In this document: positions 59 to 32,806 of the stretch, piece after piece
Layout: each line of letters begins with the position of its first letter
Numbering within the stretch: the first letter of the stretch is position 1
Source of the DNA: Clostridia bacterium
Lineage (GTDB): Bacteria; Bacillota; Clostridia; UMGS1810
Assembly (NCBI GenBank): GCA_045537365.1
Contig: JAZSPJ010000137.1
Location: forward strand, 1-56,464
Direction: 5' to 3'
DNA length: 56,464 bases
Made by a program: the position numbers and the translations under genes
Notes under the pieces: model-generated
What the model was told of the DNA's origin: nothing
Database searches by the model: none
Seen by the model: the letters and a program-made list of their open reading frames with translations, nothing else

Positions 59-155
59 ATATAGCAAAGCAAACGCAACGAATCGGTGAGCGGACAAAAA
101 GGCATACGGGTATGCCGTCCGCGATAAAGTGGCGAATGCGAACAAGACGATATTC

Positions 156-195
156 AGAACAACTATTAAGCCAGGTAGTTGTTCTATTTTTATTT
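156..195 (+). terminator. Rho-independent terminator-like hairpin
   Basis: Perfect 10-bp stem AGAACAACTA / TAGTTGTTCT, 10-nt loop, then ATTTTTATTT. Confidence 0.55.
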
Positions 196-469
196 CAGGA
201 AATATATACTGTGGATTTTAATTATTTTTACAAATGTAAAATTTAAAGAAAAAATCTATAATCGTAATTATGTAGTTATATGCTATTCTCAATGGTTTAA
301 GGTGTTTTACCGCAATATCTGTACAATTTTTTATAAATATGTTATAATATAATAAAAAAACAAAGAAAGCTACTGTCCGTTAAATTGTACACATGTCATG
401 ATATAATGATAGTGTCAAGTGTTATAATTCGCTTAATTTGCATCAATAATTTATCCGGAAGATATAGAT

Positions 470-4151: not shown

Positions 4152-4198
4152 AAAAATATAAAAACACAGAAAAGCTTTTGGAAAGGACAACAGTATTA

Positions 4199-5218
4199 AT
4201 GAAAAAACTGCTTTTATGCCTTGTTTTGATATTTGTTTGCGTAAGCCTTACGGCGTGCGGATTTTCAGCAAACCAAAATGTACTCGAAAATCCGTCTTTA
4301 AAAGTACATTTTATAGATGTTGGTCAGGGCGACTCAATTTTTATAGAACTTCCCGACTCAAAAACCATGCTTATAGACTGCGGTGAATACGAATATGCCG
4401 ATTTTGTTACTAACTATATAAAAAGCCTTGGGTACGACAGGCTTGATTATGCCGTTGCAACACATCCGCATACCGACCACATGGGCGGTATGGCAACCCT
4501 GATAAAAAAATTTAAACCACAAAATTTTTATATGCCCGATGCGGTGCACGATACCCTTGCCTTTGATAAAATGCTTGAGGCTCTTGCAAATTCGGGTTGC
4601 AGTGCCGAATATGCTGTTGCAGGCAAGCTTATTTTTGATGTAAACGGCACAAGAGCCGAGTTTTTAGCACCGCACAAAAACAGCTTTGCCGATTTAAACA
4701 ATCTTTCGGCGGTTATAAGGCTCACATATAAAAATTCATCATTTTTATTTACGGGCGATGCCGAAAAATATTCCGAAGCCCGTATGATTTCAAGCAAGGT
4801 CGATTTAAGTGCCGATGTTTTAAAGTGCGGTCATCACGGCAGCTCGTCATCTACAAGTGAGGCGTTTTTAAATAAGGTTAATCCAAAATATGCAGTTATA
4901 TCTGCCGGCAAGGACAACAGCTACGGGCATCCTCATATTGAAACCATTGCCCTGCTTGACCGAAAGGGCGTTGAGTATTACCAAACAAGCGAGGTGGGAA
5001 CTGTTGTAATTTCAACCGACGGCGAGGCTTATGCCGTGCAAACGATTGAAACTGCCGATAGTCGCAATATTGCCAATTACACTAATGTATATCGCACCAA
5101 AAAGGGCAAGCGCTATCACATAGAGGGGTGCGATGGTCTTAAATACACCAAAATACCAACAACCATAGAGGAGGCACAGCGCATGGGGCTTAAGCCCTGC
5201 AATGCGTGTATGCCATAG
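4199..5218 (+). CDS. Secreted lipoprotein, ComEC/Rec2-related metallo-beta-lactamase-fold hydrolase with a C-terminal His/Cys motif
   Basis: Lipobox LTAC after MKKLLLCLVLIFVCVS. MBL motifs HFIDVGQGDS and HPHTDHMGG. The C-terminus carries YH-x4-C...C-x2-C. Confidence 0.8.
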   Translation: MKKLLLCLVLIFVCVSLTACGFSANQNVLENPSLKVHFIDVGQGDSIFIELPDSKTMLIDCGEYEYADFVTNYIKSLGYDRLDYAVATHPHTDHMGGMATLIKKFKPQNFYMPDAVHDTLAFDKMLEALANSGCSAEYAVAGKLIFDVNGTRAEFLAPHKNSFADLNNLSAVIRLTYKNSSFLFTGDAEKYSEARMISSKVDLSADVLKCGHHGSSSSTSEAFLNKVNPKYAVISAGKDNSYGHPHIETIALLDRKGVEYYQTSEVGTVVISTDGEAYAVQTIETADSRNIANYTNVYRTKKGKRYHIEGCDGLKYTKIPTTIEEAQRMGLKPCNACMP

Positions 5219-6512: not shown

Positions 6513-7874
6513 TTACCTCTTATTAAACTCAACATATTCCTGCTTTTCTTTAACATTTATATAAGCAGGGCGTATTATTTTTCCGTTATTTTGTATCTCC
6601 TCTATTCTGTGGGCGCTCCAACCTGAAATTCTTGAAATCGCAAATATAGGCGTGTAAAGCTCGCAGGGCAGTTCAAGCATTTTGTATATAAGTCCCGAAT
6701 AAAAGTCTACATTCGGGCTTACACCTTTATACATCTGCCGTTTTTCTGCAATGATTTCGGGCGCAAGGCGTGCAACGGTTTCATATAAAGCGTAATCGTC
6801 GTCATAACCTTTTGCAACGGATAAATCTTTTGCACAGCTTTTAAGCACATCGGCACGGGGATCGGATTTTGAATAAATTGCGTGCCCCATTCCGTATATA
6901 AGCCCTGCCTTATCAAATGCTTCTTTATTTAAAAGCTTTACAAGGTAATCTTTAATTTCACCCTCGCATTTGGTGTTTATATTTTCCTTCATATCGTCAA
7001 ACATCTGCACGACCTTAATGTTTGCACCGCCGTGACGGGGTCCTTTAAGTGAGCCGAGAGCCGCCGCAATTGCCGAGTATGTATCAGTACCCGACGAGGT
7101 TACAACATGGGTTGTAAATGATGAGTTATTACCGCCGCCGTGTTCTGCGTGCAGTACTAAAGCAAGGTCAAGAATTTTTGCTTCAAGCTCTGTGTATTTA
7201 CCCTCTCCCCTTAAAAGATGCAAAATGTTTTCGGCTGTGGAAAGCTCTGCCTTTGGCAGGTGTATATTTAAGCTTTGCTCGTTATAATAATGCTGAAACG
7301 ACTGATAGCCGTATACCGCCAAAAGCGGAAATACAGATATTAAAAATATGCTTTGCCTTAATACATTTTCTACTGATATATCATCGGGGTTATAATCGTA
7401 AGCATAAAGCGCAAGCACACAGCGGGCAAGTATATTCATCATATTACTGCCGGGTGCTTTTAGTATCATATCTCTTACAAAGGACGATGGCAGGGTTCTG
7501 TATTCGGCTAAAGTGCTTTTGAATTTTTCAAGGCTGTTTTTATCGGGCAACTCGGAAAACAGTAATAGGTAGGATATTTCCTCAAAGCCAAAGCGGTTGT
7601 CTTTTATAAAGCCCGAAACCAGTTCTTTTATATTGTATCCCCTGTAATAAAGCTCGCCGTCGCAGGGTATCTTTTCGCCGTTTGCGCCAATATCCTTTGC
7701 TTTAATGTTGGATATTTCCGTAAGCCCTGTAACTACGCCATTACCGTTTAAATCACGCAGACCGCGTTTTACATTGTGCTGTTGATACATCTGGGGCTGA
7801 ATGTGGTTGTTTGCACACGAAAGAGCCGAAAGCTCCTTTATGTACGGTGATATTTCAGAATATGGTTTTCCCAT
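6513..7874 (-). CDS. gltA: Citrate synthase
   Basis: 453 aa with HAEHGGGNNSSFTTHV and GPRHGGANIKV blocks. Confidence 0.9.
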   Translation of the reverse strand: MGKPYSEISPYIKELSALSCANNHIQPQMYQQHNVKRGLRDLNGNGVVTGLTEISNIKAKDIGANGEKIPCDGELYYRGYNIKELVSGFIKDNRFGFEEISYLLLFSELPDKNSLEKFKSTLAEYRTLPSSFVRDMILKAPGSNMMNILARCVLALYAYDYNPDDISVENVLRQSIFLISVFPLLAVYGYQSFQHYYNEQSLNIHLPKAELSTAENILHLLRGEGKYTELEAKILDLALVLHAEHGGGNNSSFTTHVVTSSGTDTYSAIAAALGSLKGPRHGGANIKVVQMFDDMKENINTKCEGEIKDYLVKLLNKEAFDKAGLIYGMGHAIYSKSDPRADVLKSCAKDLSVAKGYDDDYALYETVARLAPEIIAEKRQMYKGVSPNVDFYSGLIYKMLELPCELYTPIFAISRISGWSAHRIEEIQNNGKIIRPAYINVKEKQEYVEFNKR

Positions 7875-29017: not shown

Positions 29018-30829
29018 TTATTCCACAGTAACCGATTTTGCAAGATTTCTCGGTTTGTCGGGGTCAAGACCTTTATATATGGCAGTATGGTATGCTATAA
29101 GCTGAAAGGGTATTTGAGATACAAGGGGTGCAAAAAGCGGATTGCATGACGGAATATAAATACTTTCATCAAAAACTATATCCGAAATACCCTCGCTTAA
29201 TATGCCTGTAACTCTGCCCTCTCTTGCCTTAACCTCTTTTACATTATTTTCGTTTTTTTCAATAAGGCTTATTTGAGTGCAAAGGCATAAAACGGGCACA
29301 GTATTATCTATAAGGGCAATTGAGCCGTGCTTTAATTCGCCCGATGCATGCGCAAAGGAATGTATATATGAAACCTCTCTTAATTTTAAAGCTCCCTCAA
29401 GTGCAGATGCATAATCAAGACCTCTGCCCATAAAAACAGCACTTTTATAATTTGCAAGGCTTTTGCTTATTCTTTGGGCGACCGTGTTACAGTTCAATGC
29501 CCTTTCTATTAAGGAAGGTATTTCAAGCAGGGTGTTTGTGTATTCCCTCATAAGCTTGGTTGTAAGTGTACCCTTTGTCTTTGCCAGAAAAAGTGCAAAA
29601 TTATACATTGCTGTAAGCTGTGCAGTATATGCCTTGGTTGATGCAACGGCTATCTCGGCTCCTGCTTTTGTAAGGTAAACAAAATCTGCCTCTCTTGCAA
29701 TGGTACTGTCCTTAACATTTGTAACGGCAAGCACCTTTGCTCCTATAAGCTTTGAAAGCCGAAGCCCTGCAATAGTATCGGCAGTTTCGCCCGACTGGCT
29801 TATAACAATAACAAGGGTGTTTTCATCAATTAAAGGGGAGCGATACCGAAACTCCGATGCTATATCTGCCTCCACAGGGATTTTTGTAAAATTTTCGATT
29901 ATAGCTTTACCCGTAAGACCTGCGTGATATGCTGTACCGCAGGCAACAATATATATTTTTTTAACGGTATTTAAATAAGTTTCGCAAACACCGTCAAACA
30001 GTACGGGGATATTATGAGCTATCCGTCCGCTTAAGCAATTTTTAACTGCCTGTGGCTGTTCGTAAATCTCTTTAAGCATATAATGGCTGTAACCTTGCTT
30101 ATCTATATCCAAAGCATCATCTGTATATGTTTTGAAATTTTTTGGTATTTCCTGCTTGTTTTTGTTATAAATTTTAATATCATTTTTGCGGATATAAGCA
30201 AATTCACCGTCGTTTAGTATTAAAAAGCGGTTTGTATAAGGCATAATCGCCTGCATATCAGATGCAATAAAGGTGTCGCCGTTTGAATTGCCTATTACAA
30301 GAGGGCTGTCGGATTTAACTGCTATCATTTCCCCGTTGTCCTGATTTAAAACGCTTATGGCATAGCTTCCTTTAAGCTTTTCGGTGGCTTTTATTACCGC
30401 ATCTAAAAAATCCCCCTTATAGTAATAACTGATTAAATTAGGTATAACCTCTGTATCGGTCTGGGACGAAAAGAAAAATCCGTTTTGCATAAGGCTTGCG
30501 CTAATATCCTTATAATTTTCAATTATTCCGTTATGCACAACTGCAATTTTACCGTCACAGCTTAAATGAGGATGAGCATTTATAGTGTCGGGTACACCGT
30601 GAGTTGCCCATCTTGTATGGCCTATACCGCAATTGCTGTGAAAATCGCTTTTCGCAAGCTTTTGCTTTAAATTTTCAAGCTTGCCTGCGCTTTTTACAAG
30701 CTGTATTTTGCCTTGGCTTAAAAGGGCAACGCCTGATGAGTCGTAGCCTCTGTATTCAAGCCTTTCAAGCCCGCCGATTAAAAACGGCAGAGCATCACCT
30801 GTTCCCATATATCCGACTATTCCGCACAT
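29018..30829 (-). CDS. glmS: Glutamine--fructose-6-phosphate aminotransferase
   Basis: MCGIVGY N-terminal nucleophile, two SIS domains, C-terminal KSVTVE. Confidence 0.97.
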   Translation of the reverse strand: MCGIVGYMGTGDALPFLIGGLERLEYRGYDSSGVALLSQGKIQLVKSAGKLENLKQKLAKSDFHSNCGIGHTRWATHGVPDTINAHPHLSCDGKIAVVHNGIIENYKDISASLMQNGFFFSSQTDTEVIPNLISYYYKGDFLDAVIKATEKLKGSYAISVLNQDNGEMIAVKSDSPLVIGNSNGDTFIASDMQAIMPYTNRFLILNDGEFAYIRKNDIKIYNKNKQEIPKNFKTYTDDALDIDKQGYSHYMLKEIYEQPQAVKNCLSGRIAHNIPVLFDGVCETYLNTVKKIYIVACGTAYHAGLTGKAIIENFTKIPVEADIASEFRYRSPLIDENTLVIVISQSGETADTIAGLRLSKLIGAKVLAVTNVKDSTIAREADFVYLTKAGAEIAVASTKAYTAQLTAMYNFALFLAKTKGTLTTKLMREYTNTLLEIPSLIERALNCNTVAQRISKSLANYKSAVFMGRGLDYASALEGALKLREVSYIHSFAHASGELKHGSIALIDNTVPVLCLCTQISLIEKNENNVKEVKAREGRVTGILSEGISDIVFDESIYIPSCNPLFAPLVSQIPFQLIAYHTAIYKGLDPDKPRNLAKSVTVE

Positions 30830-30889
30830 ACATAAAACTCCTTTAAAATGAATATATATGTTATTTTATATTTTTTCGTCATTTTTATG

Positions 30890-30918
30890 TAGATTTTTAT
30901 TTTCAAATATGTTATAAT
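30890..30918 (+). promoter_or_regulatory. Extended -10 promoter reading toward the repeat array and comM
   Basis: TGtTATAAT at 30910-30918. The -35 is weak (TAGATT) at 17-nt spacing. Confidence 0.4.
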
Positions 30919-30940
30919 GAATTCAACAAAGTTGAATTCA
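30918..30940. promoter_or_regulatory. Perfect 23-bp palindrome overlapping the -10 and +1 positions (operator-like)
   Basis: TGAATTCAAC-AAA-GTTGAATTCA. Confidence 0.45.
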
Positions 30941-31086
30941 GATAAATTCGCTATTGCGAGCTAAATGTGCTTTGGCACGCTAAATTACTTCGTAGCTAAA
31001 TTGACCTTGCGGTCAGCTAAAAGCGAATTTAATTTAGCTGTTTCAAAGAAACAATTTAGCTATGCAACTTGTTGCAAAATTTAGCT
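30941..31086. repeat. Array of a constant 8-9 nt unit interleaved with different mini-palindromes. The unit runs forward five times, then inverted three times.
   Basis: Forward unit (A)GCTAAAT(T) at 30941 (degenerate GATAAATT), 30959, 30979, 30994 and 31015. Inverted unit AATTTAGC(T) at 31031, 31053 and 31078. The spacers are CGCTATTGCG, GTGCTTTGGCAC, (T)ACTTCGT(A), GACCTTGCGGTC, GTTTCAAAGAAAC and TGCAACTTGTTGCA. Confidence 0.7.
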
Positions 31087-31267
31087 AAAAAGAAATTGTC
31101 ATGATGTGAGTACAAGTTAATAATAAATAATTGTTGGCAAATTCGCAGAATGTTAATTTCATCAATAAATACGGTTAAAGGAAAATCTTAATGATGAGTT
31201 GATTACTAAATCGTTCACTAATTCTATAATGCAAAATATAATAGATTTGTAAAGGAGGAACGTATAT

Positions 31268-32806
31268 ATGTCGCTTTCTAATATATATTCTGCAGGAATT
31301 TTTGGCATAAACGGCTATGTTGTAGAGGTTGAAACCGATATGTCTAACGGCATGCCGGGAGTTGATATTGTAGGCTTGCCGGACAATGCGGTTAAAGAGT
31401 CAAAAGAAAGGGTTAAATCTGCTATAAAAAACAGCGGTTTTGATTATCCGCAAAAGAAAATAGTAATAAATCTTGCGCCTGCAAATGTAAAAAAAGAGGG
31501 CGTATTTCTTGATTTGCCAATTGCATGTGCAATTTTGGTATCGTCAGGTCAGATAGTAAACGATAATATATCGGATTATATGATAATTGGAGAGCTTGCA
31601 CTCGACGGCAGTGTCAGAAAGGCGGCAGGTGTGCTTTCTATGACAGTTGCCGCAAGAGATGAAGGCATAAAAAATGTGATAGTTCCCTTTGAAAATGCTT
31701 ATGAGGCATCGGTAGTTGATGGTATTAATGTTTACGGAGCAACAAGCTTAAATGAGGTGGTAAGCCATTTAAGGGGCAGTAAGCTTATGGAGCCTGCAAT
31801 AGCCGATATAGATAAAATGTTTTCCGAGAGTTCGTTTTACGATATTGATTTTGAAAATGTAAAAGGTCAGGAAAGTGCAAAAAGAGCATTGGAGGTTGCG
31901 GCGGCAGGAGGACATAACTGCCTTATGGTCGGCTCTCCCGGTTCAGGTAAAACAATGCTTGCAAAAAGACTTCCTACAATACTGCCCGACTTAACCTTTG
32001 AGGAAGCTCTTGAGGTAACAAAAATTTATTCAATAAGCGGTAAGCTCTCAAGCGATACGGCGCTTGTAACCAAACGTCCCTTCAGAAGTCCGCACCATAC
32101 TGTATCTAACGTGGCATTAACAGGCGGAGGCAGTATGCCAAAGCCCGGCGAGGTAAGCCTTGCACACAGAGGTGTATTGTTTCTTGACGAACTGCCTGAA
32201 TTCAGAAAGGATGCCATAGAAGCTATGCGCCAGCCTATTGAGGACGGACAATTTACCGTAGCAAGAGTGGCAGGCAATGCAACATTTCCAAGCTCGGTGA
32301 TGCTTATTGCAAGTATGAACCCTTGTAAATGCGGATATTTTGGCGATGCATCAAGGGAGTGCATTTGTACCCCCATACAGATACAAAATTATTTAAGTAA
32401 AATATCAGGTCCTATGCTTGACAGATTTGACATACATATTCAGGTGCCGTCGGTAAAATATAATGAGCTTTCGTCGGACAAAAATGGCGAAAAATCAAAA
32501 TATATTAAAGAGCGTGTTGAAAAAGCAAGGCAAATTCAGCTTGAGCGGTATAAGGATATGGGTATATTTACAAATTCACAGCTTGGGGCTTATGGTATAG
32601 AAAAGTTTTGCAGAATTGATGCACAATCGAGTGAGCTTTTAAATAATGTATTTGATAAGCTTGGCTTAAGTGCAAGAGCACACGCACGAATTTTAAAGGT
32701 TGCACGCACTATTGCAGATTTGGAGGCAAGCCCTGATATACAGTTTAATCATATAGCAGAGGCTATACAGTACAGAAGTCTTGATAAAAAATTCTGGTTT
32801 AAATAA
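31268..32806 (+). CDS. comM: YifB/ComM-family Mg-chelatase-like AAA+ ATPase
   Basis: 512 aa. Lon-protease-like N-terminal domain, Walker A GSPGSGKT, and VLFLDELPEF. Confidence 0.9.
   Translation: MSLSNIYSAGIFGINGYVVEVETDMSNGMPGVDIVGLPDNAVKESKERVKSAIKNSGFDYPQKKIVINLAPANVKKEGVFLDLPIACAILVSSGQIVNDNISDYMIIGELALDGSVRKAAGVLSMTVAARDEGIKNVIVPFENAYEASVVDGINVYGATSLNEVVSHLRGSKLMEPAIADIDKMFSESSFYDIDFENVKGQESAKRALEVAAAGGHNCLMVGSPGSGKTMLAKRLPTILPDLTFEEALEVTKIYSISGKLSSDTALVTKRPFRSPHHTVSNVALTGGGSMPKPGEVSLAHRGVLFLDELPEFRKDAIEAMRQPIEDGQFTVARVAGNATFPSSVMLIASMNPCKCGYFGDASRECICTPIQIQNYLSKISGPMLDRFDIHIQVPSVKYNELSSDKNGEKSKYIKERVEKARQIQLERYKDMGIFTNSQLGAYGIEKFCRIDAQSSELLNNVFDKLGLSARAHARILKVARTIADLEASPDIQFNHIAEAIQYRSLDKKFWFK

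Follow-up and report, generated by a model that had tools for sequence, protein, structure and literature searches.

Two described entities lie closest to the locus analyzed here. The RNA motif Gut-1 (RF01706) has been an Rfam orphan since 2010, known only from human gut metagenomes and without context or function, and it was rated as certainly RNA (Weinberg et al. 2010, Genome Biol 11:R31). Its Rfam model comprises three hairpins only, and the published description contains no long-range helix, inverted half, promoter junction or linked protein gene; it is classed as a free-standing small RNA with no role assigned. In the flanks of its seed alignment, GUGAUAU occurs as a forward and AUAUCAC as an inverted unit, and seeds occur as tandem copies with a 240-nt period (PMC2864571, Additional file 4). 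The second entity is the four-helix-bundle family PF05635/TIGR02436, a large set of highly abundant small genes to which no role has been assigned beyond diversity-generating retroelements (DGRs). The family comprises the 23S rRNA intervening-sequence proteins (S23 family) and the DGR protein Avd, a pentameric, positively charged barrel resembling S23 ribosomal proteins, for which an Avd-binding RNA element has been described (bioRxiv 10.1101/2023.10.23.563531). Its members are small genes lodged within other loci, such as rRNA intervening sequences and cas operons, where they are linked to CRISPR arrays (PMC3936711, PMC10910872), and as Avd they reside in DGR loci (PMC10053308). In the literature on the bundle family we found no report of a repeat-hairpin leader or of a promoter location, and the literature on the bundle family, Gut-1 and mobile promoters gave no functional match.

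The window (the whole stretch of 56,464 nucleotides analyzed, from a Clostridia bacterium) and its relatives connect Gut-1 RNA with PF05635/TIGR02436 genes. Overall, we are confident that the element between glmS and comM in the window is best explained as an internally deleted copy of a small cassette, widespread in gut and rumen Clostridia, that has a Gut-1-like plus-strand RNA core and normally also a four-helix-bundle gene.

The original prediction had described an extended -10 promoter, a 23-bp palindrome overlapping it, five forward and three inverted copies of a short unit, and mini-hairpins as spacers; all of them are present in the sequence (Table 1). The inverted units in the form AATTTAGCT start at 31031, 31053 and 31078, and the start-to-start distances of consecutive units are 19, 19, 16, 21, 16, 22 and 25 nt. 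The heptamer GCTAAAT is rarer than expected in the window (9 exact matches against 20.6), and six of the nine fall in the 125-nt array stretch; the remaining three are isolated, leaving one array in 56 kb. All six inter-unit spacers are end-to-end hairpins, with stems of 4, 5, 3, 5, 6 and 6 bp. The per-spacer hairpin probabilities multiply to ~1e-8, and the total stem length observed was reached by none of 100,000 random spacer sets. When the 183-nt array stretch is folded, its z score is -5.7 for the plus and -5.4 for the minus strand. The array is a genuinely structured element rather than noise.

Table 1. Features of the inserted element and its surroundings, in window coordinates.
Feature	Position	Strand	Basis or remark
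glmS	29018..30829	-	divergent host gene, outside the element
Host glmS-comM spacer proper	30830..30916	+	matches empty-site relatives up to ...AAATATGTTATA
Extended -10 box TGTTATAAT (P1)	30910..30918	+	TG and upstream part are host sequence
P0, perfect 10-bp palindrome/hairpin TGAATTCAAC-AAA-GTTGAATTCA (23 bp)	30918..30940	+	left end of inserted element
Forward half, Gut-1-like core, units U1-U5: GATAAAT 30941-47 (degenerate); GCTAAAT 30960-66, 30979-85, 30995-31001; GCTAAAA 31016-22	30941..31022	+	repeat/hairpin parsing, Rfam Gut-1 alignment
Forward-half hairpins	S1 30948-59, S2 30967-78, S3 30986-94, S4 31002-15	+	
H1 5' strand TAAATTCGCT	30943..30952	+	overlaps U1 and 5' arm of S1
H1 3' strand AGCGAATTTA	31022..31031	+	element centre
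Inverted half, units I1 31032-38, I2 31054-60, I4 31079-85	31032..31085	+	
Inverted-half hairpins	S5 31039-53, S6 31061-78	+	
Leader tail and RBS region of lost four-helix-bundle gene	31086..31112	+	homology ends at the gene's start codon
Bundle-gene remnant YKLIINNCWQIRRMLISSINTVKGKS, last 26 codons and stop	31111..31191	+	translation, tblastn
Cassette right-end motif CTAAATCGTTCACTAATTC	31206..31224	+	also in L179, L144/146/148, variant in L135
TATAAT 31225-30, then GCAAAA, then TATAAT 31237-42	31225..31242	+	first TATAAT is the second element-flanking -10 hexamer
comM (YifB-type Mg-chelatase-like ATPase)	31268..32806	+	downstream host gene, outside the element

The original prediction had matched the array to no RNA family, and had noted the absence of the glmS ribozyme from a place where one might be looked for. 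Rfam scans confirmed the latter: with the gathering threshold applied to the whole window, the ribozyme (RF00234) had no match, nor did 30500-31600 contain one when E <= 10 was allowed. At gathering thresholds the whole window gave only a T-box, elsewhere, and an E-value scan of 1.1 kb around the array gave nothing relevant and no Gut-1 match. The claim of no known family thus stands at the Rfam threshold, but the array follows the grammar of Gut-1, a match that surfaced only after related loci had been scanned. The Gut-1 model aligns end to end (positions 1-77) to 30939-31006 on the plus strand with 18.0 bits, below the gathering score of 50 bits (E = 0.25 in a 181-nt search), in the register U1-S1-U2-S2-U3-S3-U4 and with the linker GCUAAAU instead of GUGAAAU. 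Related loci score higher: L132, whose promoter and P0 are homologous, reaches 46.5 bits (E 1.4e-8), and L165 has matches of 37.6 and 29.5 bits.

As in Gut-1, the same 7-nt linker stands on both sides of three consecutive hairpins in the window, and the stems vary in a compensatory manner across the array family. Both share a conserved 7-nt linker (GUGAAAU/GUGAUAU in Gut-1, GCUAAAU here) before at least three short covarying hairpins, and a habitat of gut metagenomes and uncultured Clostridia. The likeness extends to the flanks of the Gut-1 seeds, with their P0 hairpin, pairing of the first unit and arm with the centre, inverted half and tandem copies; two seeds that we parsed (BAAZ01000095.1 and BAAZ01025322.1) contain a pre-unit hairpin, a centre complementary to the first unit, and inverted units. 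The window differs in its unit sequence, its shorter stems and its score of 18 bits, and the array here heads a gene cassette, in contrast to a free-standing small RNA. Judged from its sequence, the array is a divergent relative of Gut-1. We found no description of the context in which this variant of the motif occurs, and it extends the Gut-1 architecture by a P0 hairpin, a long-range helix and an inverted half.

Because RNAalifold, run on sequences aligned with MAFFT, put hairpins out of register and confused the unit pairings, we used a module-based structural alignment (Python) instead. Across 18 parsed elements, 107 of 116 spacers are hairpins; stems were picked per sequence, which makes the paired percentage no independent measure, unlike the random-spacer test above. 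With 13-16 distinct copies compared for each hairpin, two to four kinds of base pair occur at the majority of stem positions in S1-S4; at the third pair of S2, for example, GC and AT are each found four times and TA and CG three times. G·U wobbles read on the plus strand in both halves of the array. A pairing between AAATTCGC and GCGAATTT (at 31023) had been proposed; it is real and covaries, with AAATTCGC located at 30944 rather than at 30945. The long-range helix H1, which spans these segments, has 92% canonical pairs in 13 elements, with compensatory changes at six of its ten pairs and one mismatch in three copies; slid registers gave 21-44%, and shuffling 0/1000. H1 and S1 are mutually exclusive, because the 5' strand of H1 shares bases with U1 and with the S1 5' arm.

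The proposed pairing of forward with inverted units was borne out as well, in that complementarity is kept over three unit types (GCTAAAT/ATTTAGC, TCGATAT/ATATCGA and GTGATAT/ATATCAC). It is imperfect in places: L184 has AUUUCGC against GCUAAAU, and L165 mixes unit types. Nested pairing is possible in two registers, with scores of 96% and 95%, and variant units are too few to tell one from the other; a nested structure can accommodate H1 or the unit-to-unit pairings, but not both. The covarying hairpins, the plus-strand G·U pairs and the covarying H1 support the view that the array acts as one plus-strand RNA, and the RNA reading of the original prediction fits better than chance.

The palindrome had been read as an operator. 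It is identical in L179, its symmetry is held by compensatory changes in L114, L132, L006 and L192, and it is replaced by unrelated hairpins in L182, L168, L184 and the Gut-1 seeds. Because the symmetry is kept in this way and the replacements are themselves hairpins, the comparison leans towards P0 as the left-end hairpin of the element over a fixed operator. As a point against the favoured explanation, P0 could not form in the RNA from P1, because a start ~7 nt past the -10 box would fall in its 5' arm.

Downstream of the array, a gene remnant and the right-end motif (31111-31224) had been missed by the original prediction. These identify the array as the leader of a decayed cassette. Intact, Avd-like TIGR02436/PF05635 genes stand behind the same succession of promoter, hairpin and array in six unrelated gene contexts of gut Clostridia (L114, L135, L145, L174, L179 and L184). 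An intact homologue was assigned to the family by Pfam (E 4e-29), TIGR02436 (E 2e-34) and PDB 2RLD (E 8e-33), the nearest solved structure, whose entry holds five chains. The remnant at 31111-31188 is 77% identical to residues 92-117 of 122 (tblastn, E 5.5e-8), and no intact bundle ORF is present downstream of the window array, codons 1 to ~94 having been deleted. Aligned block by block, the window and the L179 cassette are 87-100% identical per major block; 31063-31112 matches L179 1451-1499 at 88-100%, and the right-end motif matches L179 2199-2223 at 88%. The tandem copies of L144/146/148 have the motif where they join, and L135 has a variant of it. The window copy lacks bundle codons 1 to ~94, the second ORF and one array module, its inverted half being one spacer and unit shorter than in intact copies. 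Because the RBS of the bundle gene, its last 26 codons and the right-end motif are retained, 30919-31224 is, on sequence grounds, an internally deleted cassette copy.

The cassette gene is a member of a family already known from other loci; neither a reverse transcriptase nor a template repeat nor an rRNA setting is present here. Arrays without any bundle gene were found in L192, L006, L003, L132, L161, L165, L168 and some Gut-1 seeds, of which L161, L165 and L168 are phage or prophage contigs; a protein scan of viral contigs with the bundle protein gave no relatives. Because arrays occur without the gene, the bundle protein is optional cargo, and a putative binding partner of the array. Tandem cassette copies occur in L144, and L114 and L127 differ by the presence or absence of array and gene. 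Against the favoured explanation, L184 and L185 have a terminator ahead of the array and a TGTTATAAT promoter behind it, before the bundle gene; in this subfamily the array is not the leader of the bundle gene.

Comparison with relatives of the same uvrB-glmS/comM synteny located the ends of the element. L189 (95% ComM identity) and L193 (83%) have an empty glmS-comM spacer of 131-144 nt; the site is filled in the window and in L192, and empty in L189-191 and L193. In an alignment of the window with L189, L193 and L192 (90%), conservation ends at ~30916. The P1 hexamer occupies the position where empty sites read TATACT, and the empty-site sequence homologous to 31225-31242 is TATACT-ATATAT-TATAAT. 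A second filled/empty pair is formed by L179 against L196 and L194/195: the L179 junctions read ...TGG/TATAAT/GAATTC... and ...GATTC/TACAAT/..., and the empty site reads TGGTACAAT. At other filled loci, a host-specific -35 box (TTGAnn) stands 17 bp upstream of the TATAAT/GAATTC junction. L184 and L185 are 97-100% identical rightward from P0 and unrelated leftward, with the breakpoint just 5' of P0. The same element was found upstream of DJ-1, PHP, GNAT, lipase, AlaX-like and radical-SAM genes. At two independent loci, each with empty-site relatives, the position of the cassette thus coincides exactly with the -10 hexamer of a host promoter of extended -10 type, and the same cassette recurs in unrelated contexts with its breakpoint at P0.

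A -10-like hexamer is present at both flanks (TATAAT/TATAAT in the window, TATAAT/TACAAT in L179, TATAAT/TATAAT in L135, TATAAT/TATAAA in L114), an imperfect duplication, as TATAAT against TACAAT illustrates. Because the left copy is nearly always TATAAT despite host TACAAT (L196) or TATACT (L189), the element may carry its own hexamer. Only GAATT(C) is common to both element ends, so that any terminal inverted repeat would be ~5 bp. ORF lists and precomputed Pfam tables contained no transposase- or recombinase-like ORF in or beside the copies examined, although an enzyme could act in trans. With filled and empty relatives sharing the same junction, as in mobile elements, the cassette is probably mobile. 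It resembles miniature elements (MITEs) such as the Correia elements of Neisseria in its size of a few hundred bp, its cargo-free copies, its filled and empty sites, the short sequence that recurs, not always perfectly, at both flanks, and as a hairpin-folding, transcribed element (transcription of the cassette being predicted) that would alter downstream drive. It differs from them in having no clear terminal inverted repeat beyond the ~5 bp of GAATT, in targeting a -10 hexamer rather than TA, and in its interior of units and hairpins in place of one long inverted repeat. This location at -10 boxes, with filled and empty relatives, adds context to the Gut-1-type unit. At the right end of the insertion, TTCACT (31214-19), a 17-bp spacer and TATAAT make up a possible promoter for comM (P2).

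An intact cassette is organized as follows. At the left, a host -35 box and TG precede the TATAAT hexamer and the P0 hairpin. The forward half consists of four to five GCUAAAU units, each followed by a spacer-filling hairpin according to the Gut-1 grammar; a centre that can pair with the first unit and with the arm of the first hairpin (H1) leads to an inverted half of three to four AUUUAGC units, each with a hairpin. An RBS and the TIGR02436/PF05635 gene, encoding a homologue of the pentameric RNA-binding protein Avd, come next, sometimes with a second small ORF; to the right follow the right-end motif CTAAATYGTTCACTRATTC, a second -10-like hexamer and the leader of the host gene. The captured promoter may drive a plus-strand array RNA that would double as the 5' leader of the host gene behind it, comM in the window. 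Such an RNA would display 7-nt single-stranded linkers between clamp hairpins in an H1-closed junction, and the linkers may alternatively pair with the inverted units. Our best guess is that the array RNA would form a multivalent, switchable platform whose likeliest ligand is the pentameric bundle protein, in autoregulation or in RNP assembly. We put forward more tentatively, as a possibility only, that Gut-1-type arrays are the cis core of an unrecognised class of mobile cassettes of gut Clostridia and their phages, which would insert precisely at TGnTAnAAT -10 hexamers, take over the host -35 box and TG, place a downstream housekeeping gene behind the array RNA, and carry the Avd-like pentamer as optional linker-binding cargo. 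If this holds, a single system would unite Gut-1 RNA and the widespread PF05635 genes, both orphans so far, as its two halves. Because its partner gene is dead, the array in the window itself is most likely a relic merely riding in the comM 5' region, and this decayed copy probably alters only comM transcription.

Two alternative readings place the function of the array in DNA. Its hairpins and units could be single-stranded mobility signals, as in IS200/IS605, REP/RAYT or attC, with transcription incidental. The P0 hairpin lies exactly on the left boundary, insertion is precise at a -10 hexamer, a stretch whose strands are separated when a promoter complex is open, and a long terminal inverted repeat is lacking; mini-elements of ~240 nt without cargo and tandem copies fit as well, and strand-specific G·T pairs are tolerated in DNA hairpins too. 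We nevertheless regard this reading as unlikely: in ORF lists and precomputed Pfam tables, the neighbourhood of the copies contained neither an HUH nor a tyrosine transposase, the hairpins include UUCG-type loops that stabilise RNA rather than DNA, a strong promoter is positioned to transcribe the array in most copies, and a hexamer on both flanks is unlike IS200/IS605 insertions. REP/BIME elements with RAYT resemble the array in having a short conserved motif at the hairpin foot and clusters in both orientations, but REPs conserve the sequence of the hairpin, have no more than a tetranucleotide fixed and are dispersed in hundreds of copies per genome; here every hairpin is different, and the 56 kb of the window contain a single array. 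Acting as duplex DNA, the units could instead be sites for a sequence-specific protein (a repressor, a partition or iteron-type factor, or an enzyme such as a recombinase or transposase), with the palindrome as operator. Forward and inverted units do track each other over the three unit types, unit position 3 varies between T and G in both orientations whatever the pairing partner (L165, L184), full AGCT-centred palindromes lie at both ends (GAATTYAGCTAAATTC and AAATTTAGCTAAAA), P0 covers about -7 to +16 of P1, and the element behaves like an insertion with defined ends. A duplex site array has no need, however, of spacers that are each a different covarying hairpin, and it does not account for wobbles on the plus strand only, for the covariation of H1 between a unit-plus-arm segment and the centre, or for an irregular unit spacing of 15-25 bp; the four-helix-bundle cargo gene lies outside the forward/inverted pair, unlike cargo between transposon ends, and Gut-1 was rated certainly RNA by Weinberg et al. 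The iteron- or centromere-type array suggested originally fails in the same way, not explaining the strand-specific G·U pairs and the stem covariation; iterons and centromeres are phased direct repeats with spacers that need no self-complementarity, and the array is not of this kind. We consider duplex DNA function quite improbable.

The favoured reading of the array as RNA leaves two further alternatives. Array RNA and bundle protein could form a toxin-antitoxin or abortive-infection system similar to type III (ToxIN, CptIN), which shares with the cassette the order of promoter, repeated RNA units and small protein gene. Orphan arrays persisting after gene loss (window, L127, L003, L132) and tandem array amplification are compatible with it. 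Phage-borne mimic arrays are known for ToxIN, and the gene-less arrays on viral contigs, including one phage with terminase and portal genes, would then be decoys. ToxN cleaves at AA^AU, and the array unit contains AAAU. PF05635 genes, furthermore, have been reported in CRISPR-cas loci and, as Avd, in DGR loci (PMC3936711, PMC10910872, PMC10053308). Type III systems differ in having identical 34-36-nt repeats, a terminator between array and gene, and a ToxN-type endoribonuclease of unrelated fold. The cassette protein does not have the fold of ToxN, CptN or TenpN; units of 16-21 nt with variable hairpins stand against identical repeats of ~36 nt, and in the window the unit spacing is 16-25 nt, the hairpins differ and the array-gene terminator is absent. 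PADLOC gave no match, and capturing housekeeping promoters would be odd for a toxin, which makes this alternative, in our judgement, decidedly improbable. Least probable is that the array, together with an operator, evolved at this site as a dedicated cis-regulatory leader or small RNA serving comM or glmS. The array does lie between glmS and comM, on the comM strand and downstream of a good promoter, and comM-upstream arrays occur in four lineages (window, L192, L006 and L003). Yet the nearest relatives with identical synteny lack it, only two of 80 comM loci from GTDB species scanned for repeated heptamers have one (L003 and L006), the same element precedes many unrelated genes, and a dead gene and a cassette end separate the window array from comM. 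An element specific to glmS/comM, or a substitute for the ribozyme, as the original prediction might suggest, is thus contradicted by its absence from the closest syntenic relatives and its presence upstream of unrelated genes elsewhere. For annotation, such arrays before housekeeping genes like comM should be taken with caution, as inserted cassettes and not dedicated riboregulators.

Repeats at four other comM loci (L064, L072, L074 and L044) were unrelated to the array. In a metagenome scan for the pattern of promoter and palindrome, three of 54 loci were relevant (L114, L127 and L132), and the others were unrelated GAATTC-rich repeats or coding sequence. By inspection, we rejected a coding repeat (one frame contains stop codons and the spacings are not multiples of three), a CRISPR-like array, and a binding array of TRAP, HutP or CsrA type (motif mismatch). 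The palindrome is also unlike a LexA box, whose consensus is CGAAC-N4-GTTCG. Finally, a second copy of AAATTCGC, at 31139, lies inside the bundle-gene remnant (...QIRR... codons); it is not kept in other copies and is probably coincidental.

Every element predicted for 30910-31090, namely the promoter (P1), the palindrome (P0) and the forward and inverted units, was found in the window (see table). The six inter-unit spacers are all hairpins spanning the first to the last spacer base. The observed total stem length was reached by none of 100,000 random spacer sets of matched lengths and local composition, and the product of the per-spacer hairpin probabilities is ~1e-8. The GCTAAAT heptamer is under-represented across the 56-kb window as a whole, and six of its nine exact matches lie in the 125-nt array stretch. 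The predicted absence of a glmS ribozyme also held, with no match in the region in an Rfam search. The sole Rfam family above threshold anywhere in the window was a T-box leader (RF00230; 40825-41071, minus strand; 104.8 bits, gathering score 93).

Features of the window element and of the loci compared with it
Feature	Location	Strand	Detail
Extended -10 box (P1)	30910-30918	+	TGTTATAAT
Perfect palindrome (P0)	30918-30940		TGAATTCAAC-AAA-GTTGAATTCA
Forward units (U1-U5)	30941; 30960, 30979, 30995; 31016		GATAAAT; GCTAAAT; GCTAAAA
Inverted units	31031, 31053, 31078		AATTTAGCT
Spacer hairpins 1-3 (S1-S3), in order			TCGC-TATT-GCGA; GTGCT-TT-GGCAC; TAC-TTC-GTA
Spacer hairpins 4-6 (S4-S6), in order			TGACC-TTGC-GGTCA; TGTTTC-AAA-GAAACA; TGCAAC-TT-GTTGCA
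glmS, one flanking gene		-	
comM (YifB/ComM-type ATPase), other flanking gene		+	
Window block retained vs L179: -10 box, P0, U1, S1, U2			92% identity
Window block retained vs L179: centre			91%
Window block retained vs L179: tail and ribosome-binding site, to the gene's start codon			88-100%
Window block retained vs L179: last ~26 codons			87%
Window block retained vs L179: 19-nt right-end motif	31206-31224		CTAAATCGTTCACTAATTC; 88%
Presence/absence polymorphism	L114 7915-8478 vs L127 (rc) ~6800-6815		
L192 array in glmS-comM spacer	85-312		four forward and four inverted TCGATAT units; no bundle gene
P0031 context			glnA / bundle gene / GNAT
P0062 context			M50 peptidase / bundle gene / radical SAM
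P0098 context			short-chain dehydrogenase / bundle gene / GDSL lipase
P0086 context			pyruvate formate-lyase / bundle gene + ORF2 / AlaX-like
P0115 context			RtcB, or NadA with tRNA / bundle gene / DMP19-like
H1 variant, window			TAAATTCGCT/AGCGAATTTA
H1 variant, L184 and L185			AGTTATATTCGC/GCGAATATAATT
H1 variant, L168			TAAATTCACT/AGTGAATTTA
H1 variant, L192			GATATAAATCTC/GAGATTTATATC
H1 variant, Gut-1 seed			TGTTATATTCGCC/GGCGAATATAATA

A search of related genomes for homologous arrays, as originally suggested, found them, with the unit grammar kept and the hairpin stems covarying. A scan for ComM relatives, with one genome per GTDB species, gave 80 loci from uncultured gut and rumen Clostridia (best ComM match 77% identical), two of which have an array ahead of comM. 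The L003 array is built of four or five AGCTAAAT units and their hairpins, of which two are the same as in the window, and lacks an inverted half; in L006, TGATATAAT is followed by a palindrome GAATTCAC-AAA-GTGAATTC and a different unit, TCGATAT, in three copies with hairpins plus one inverted copy. Arrays thus lie directly upstream of comM in four lineages (window, L192, L006 and L003). A metagenome scan for promoter plus palindrome gave three further relevant loci: L114, with the architecture of the window, L127, and L132, with three GCGATAT units upstream of a PHP-domain gene. The array architecture recurs with different unit sequences and ahead of different genes, and its presence ahead of unrelated genes, such as that in L132, speaks against the element dedicated to glmS/comM that had been proposed.

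In L114, a 118-codon ORF starts 20 nt after the array. Family matches are to PF05635 (23S_rRNA_IVP, E 4e-29) and to TIGR02436 (“four helix bundle protein”, E 2e-34), and among solved structures the nearest is 2RLD (E 8e-33; an entry with five chains). L127, from the same species and locus, lacks this bundle ORF and the array beyond the first unit, and retains the promoter, P0 and the first unit, with a 15-nt filler CGTGTATGGGGTGAA at the junction. A database search gave at least 8,000 bundle-protein homologues, all with E <= 1e-10; the best 120 of these are 81-100% identical to the query, each in its own 90% cluster. Genomic context was retrieved for five homologues among the best 120, and in all five the bundle gene is preceded by the same hairpin and AGCTAAAT array. 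The window translation of 31111-31191 reads ...YKLIINNCWQIRRMLISSINTVKGKS and then a stop codon, against ...YKAIVSNCGQIRRMLISSIKTVKEHTK and a stop in L114. This remnant is 77% identical to the intact protein over residues 92-117 of 122 (tblastn, E 5.5e-8), and tblastn across the window found no other copy. In a block alignment with the intact cassette of L179 (array, bundle gene and right-end motif), the window is missing one array module, codons 1 to ~94 and the second ORF. These comparisons indicate that the array is the leader of a four-helix-bundle gene, whose remains the window holds. The second AAATTCGC (31139), which had been listed with the array, is part of the remnant coding sequence, and other alleles do not preserve it.

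The second small ORFs of L179 (1869-2192) and L145 (2866-3324) are translationally coupled to the bundle gene by stop/start overlap; in Pfam, one weakly resembles a pyrophosphatase (E 2e-4, short of the cut-off) and the other matches nothing. L184 and L185 (1262-2821) have a terminator-like hairpin 5’ of the array, a TGTTATAAT promoter between array and bundle gene, and a 319-aa DMP19-like (DNA-mimic family) ORF 3’ of the bundle gene; in L185 a tRNA gene lies directly 5’ of the cassette.

The window and its closest ComM relatives share uvrB-glmS/comM-TPR-LarC-RluD synteny, with a glmS-comM spacer of 131 nt in L189-191 (95% ComM), 144 nt in L193 (83%) and 438 nt in the window. Four kinds of locus (window, L189-191, L193 and L192) can be aligned up to ...AAATATGTTATA (alignment A2). 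Past this point the empty sites run on as CTATATATTATAATAATTCG...GGAGG-ATG, the window as ATGAATTCAAC..., and L192 (90% ComM) as ATGATTTCATC-GAA-GATGAAATCA followed by a complete TCGATAT-type array; hence two different array types occupy this junction, which is empty in two lineages. In a second, independent pair, the empty sites L196 and L194/195 read TTGATT-N17-(TGG)TACAAT-ACTCTAAAGGAAG...ATG, and the filled site L179 reads TTGATT-N17-(TGG)TATAAT / GAATTCAAC...cassette on the left and cassette...CACTGATTC / TACAAT-ACATATAAGGAAG...ATG on the right, so that the cassette sits precisely on the -10 hexamer of an extended -10 promoter. A hexamer is present on each side of the cassette. Eight filled sites have TATAAT as the left copy irrespective of the host hexamer, and L182 has TAGAAT; the two copies may stem from duplication of a 6-bp target, or the element may bring a hexamer of its own. 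The alignments show the window element as an inserted, internally deleted cassette at a captured promoter.

Further signs of mobility are a breakpoint at P0, tandem copies (also among the Gut-1 seeds described below) and arrays on viral contigs. From P0 rightwards L184 and L185 share 97-100% identity over more than 1 kb; to its left they are unrelated. L144, L146 and L148 (2030-2480) carry the leader (P0 plus array) twice in tandem, at a ~241-nt period, the copies being joined via the right-end motif and TAATAAT (in L148 the first copy contains a run of N); the L144 locus in other samples (L145 and L147) has a single leader copy. Arrays were also found on the viral contigs L161, L165 and L168, of which L165 is a phage contig with small and large terminase and portal genes. 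The L165 array (4165-4435), of mixed GCTAAAT/GCGAAAT units, is located at the end of the contig, immediately 5’ of the small terminase gene, and starts and finishes with ATTCCAA. On the minus strand, the order is tRNA, terminator, array in L168 (125-365) and hairpin with T-run (terminator-like), array, promoter, tRNAs in L161 (10160-10345); no bundle gene was found among the nearby ORFs examined in these two.

The array had been said to match no known RNA family. No Rfam family reaches threshold in the region, but the array has the grammar of Gut-1 (RF01706; gathering score 50 bits). Sub-threshold alignments to Gut-1 were obtained for window 30939-31006 (18.0 bits, full-length register) and L132 (46.5 bits, E 1.4e-8), and for L165, where the forward half scored 37.6 bits (plus strand) and the inverted half 29.5 bits (minus strand). 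The Gut-1 consensus is CAaUGAAAU[hairpin]GUGAAAU[hairpin]GUGAAAU[hairpin]UGAAAU. The motif was described from 43 examples, all in human gut metagenomes, and classed as certainly RNA and probably not cis-regulatory, with no function given (Weinberg et al. 2010, PMC2864571). The flanks included in the seed alignment of that study (PMC2864571) show the extended architecture. A hairpin lies 5’ of the initial unit, which reads GUUAUAU and leads into UCGCC..GGCGA; GUGAUAU units come next, and beyond a centre ...GGCGAAUAUA... the inverted unit AUAUCAC is present four times, again with hairpins. Tandem Gut-1 seeds have a 240-nt period, and one seed lies directly 3’ of a tRNA and its terminator. Although under the Rfam threshold, the window array has every architectural feature in common with Gut-1, and this together with the sub-threshold alignment makes it a divergent member of a wider Gut-1-like class. 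The RNA core of the cassette is a new variant of this known orphan motif, and the window copy is decayed. Neither the link to four-helix-bundle genes nor the placement at -10 boxes seems to have been described in the literature searched.

Across 18 parsed elements, 107 of 116 spacers form end-to-end hairpins, with several pair types at equivalent stem positions (S2 third pair: GC four times, AT four, TA three, CG three). Wobble pairs read as G·U on the plus strand, in the forward and the inverted half alike; L168 and L161 match the grammar only on their minus strand. The competing or pseudoknot pairing of the original prediction corresponds to a long-range helix, H1, in which the 3’ part of U1 and the 5’ arm of S1 pair with the centre. 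On a module-based alignment not fitted to it, H1 is 92% canonical in 13 sequences, with compensatory changes at 6 of 10 pairs and one mismatch in each of three copies; helices slid by 1-3 columns gave 21-44%, and the observed value was reached in 0 of 1000 column shuffles. H1 fixes the polarity of the element, and it is predicted to compete with hairpin S1. The proposed nested pairing of forward and inverted units is upheld in that complementarity reaches 95-96% whichever nested register is used, and the two orientations change together across three unit types; however, some copies have a central unit mismatch (e.g. GCUAAAU against AUUUCGC in L184), and these pairings are not nestable together with H1, so that the RNA would have two alternative global folds or a pseudoknot. 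For the window element, then, plus-strand covariation points to an RNA structure of Gut-1-like type, and the cassette comparisons tie it to a gene of the Avd family.

The window and L179 have the same P0 sequence, and elsewhere its symmetry is kept via paired changes (AAC/GTT, ATC/GAT, AC/GT; in L192, GAATTC/GAATTC to GATTTC/GAAATC). Unrelated hairpins, some terminator-like, stand in its place in L182, L168, L184 and the Gut-1 seeds. The supposed palindromic operator is a genuine palindrome overlapping P1, but the paired changes and the replacements argue for a hairpin at the left end of the element rather than one fixed operator. Since P0 spans about -7 to +16 of P1, an RNA started at P1 would lack the P0 5’ arm; P0 may serve as an operator, as an end structure in DNA or single-stranded DNA, or, if transcripts read through from upstream, as a hairpin in RNA.

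Transcription of the array would start at P1 and provide a leader for both the cassette gene and the host gene downstream. No terminator was found in the array region of the window, and comM could additionally be driven from a possible second promoter (TTCACT-17-TATAAT, 31214-31242). Held between clamp hairpins, the repeated single-stranded linkers may form a multivalent site for an oligomer, for which the bundle protein is the obvious candidate; Avd, which is homologous to it, forms positively charged pentamers and has a defined RNA-binding element (bioRxiv 10.1101/2023.10.23.563531). By competing internally, the inverted units could create a switch. Gene-less arrays, and the L184 subfamily with its promoter between array and gene, imply that binding of the bundle protein is not the whole story.

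Other readings were weighed against an RNA leader. The hairpins and units could be transposition signals in single-stranded DNA, which we consider unlikely; insertion at -10 hexamers stands on one side, and on the other no transposase was seen within or beside any copy examined. It is slightly less likely that the units are binding sites in duplex DNA, given the way forward and inverted units track each other on the one hand and the covarying stems with plus-strand G·U wobbles on the other. Less likely still is that array and bundle protein form a type III-like toxin-antitoxin pair with phage decoys, a reading favoured by the gene-less arrays, those on viral contigs included, and opposed by a protein fold unlike that of ToxN. 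The window element is most likely a relic affecting only how comM is transcribed. The finding is real, and of more interest than a local oddity, though not in the way originally proposed.

The scans also returned other repeats. Dozens of irregularly spaced ATATGAATTCATAT palindromes on freshwater metagenome contigs (L082, L083, L084, L104, L109 and L134) share the search pattern only and seem unrelated to the cassette. L107 (1695-1978) has three tandem 127-bp repeats with TATAATGAATTCATTCAAGGCATGAATTCA in each, and L074 (150-330) has clustered GC-rich REP-like hairpins ACGGGGCGGAGCCCCG in both orientations. In L064 (651-770), about five copies of a 23-bp tandem repeat, TTTCGATTTCCGAAAGTCTTGAC, lie 2.3 kb upstream of comM and look like an iteron array.
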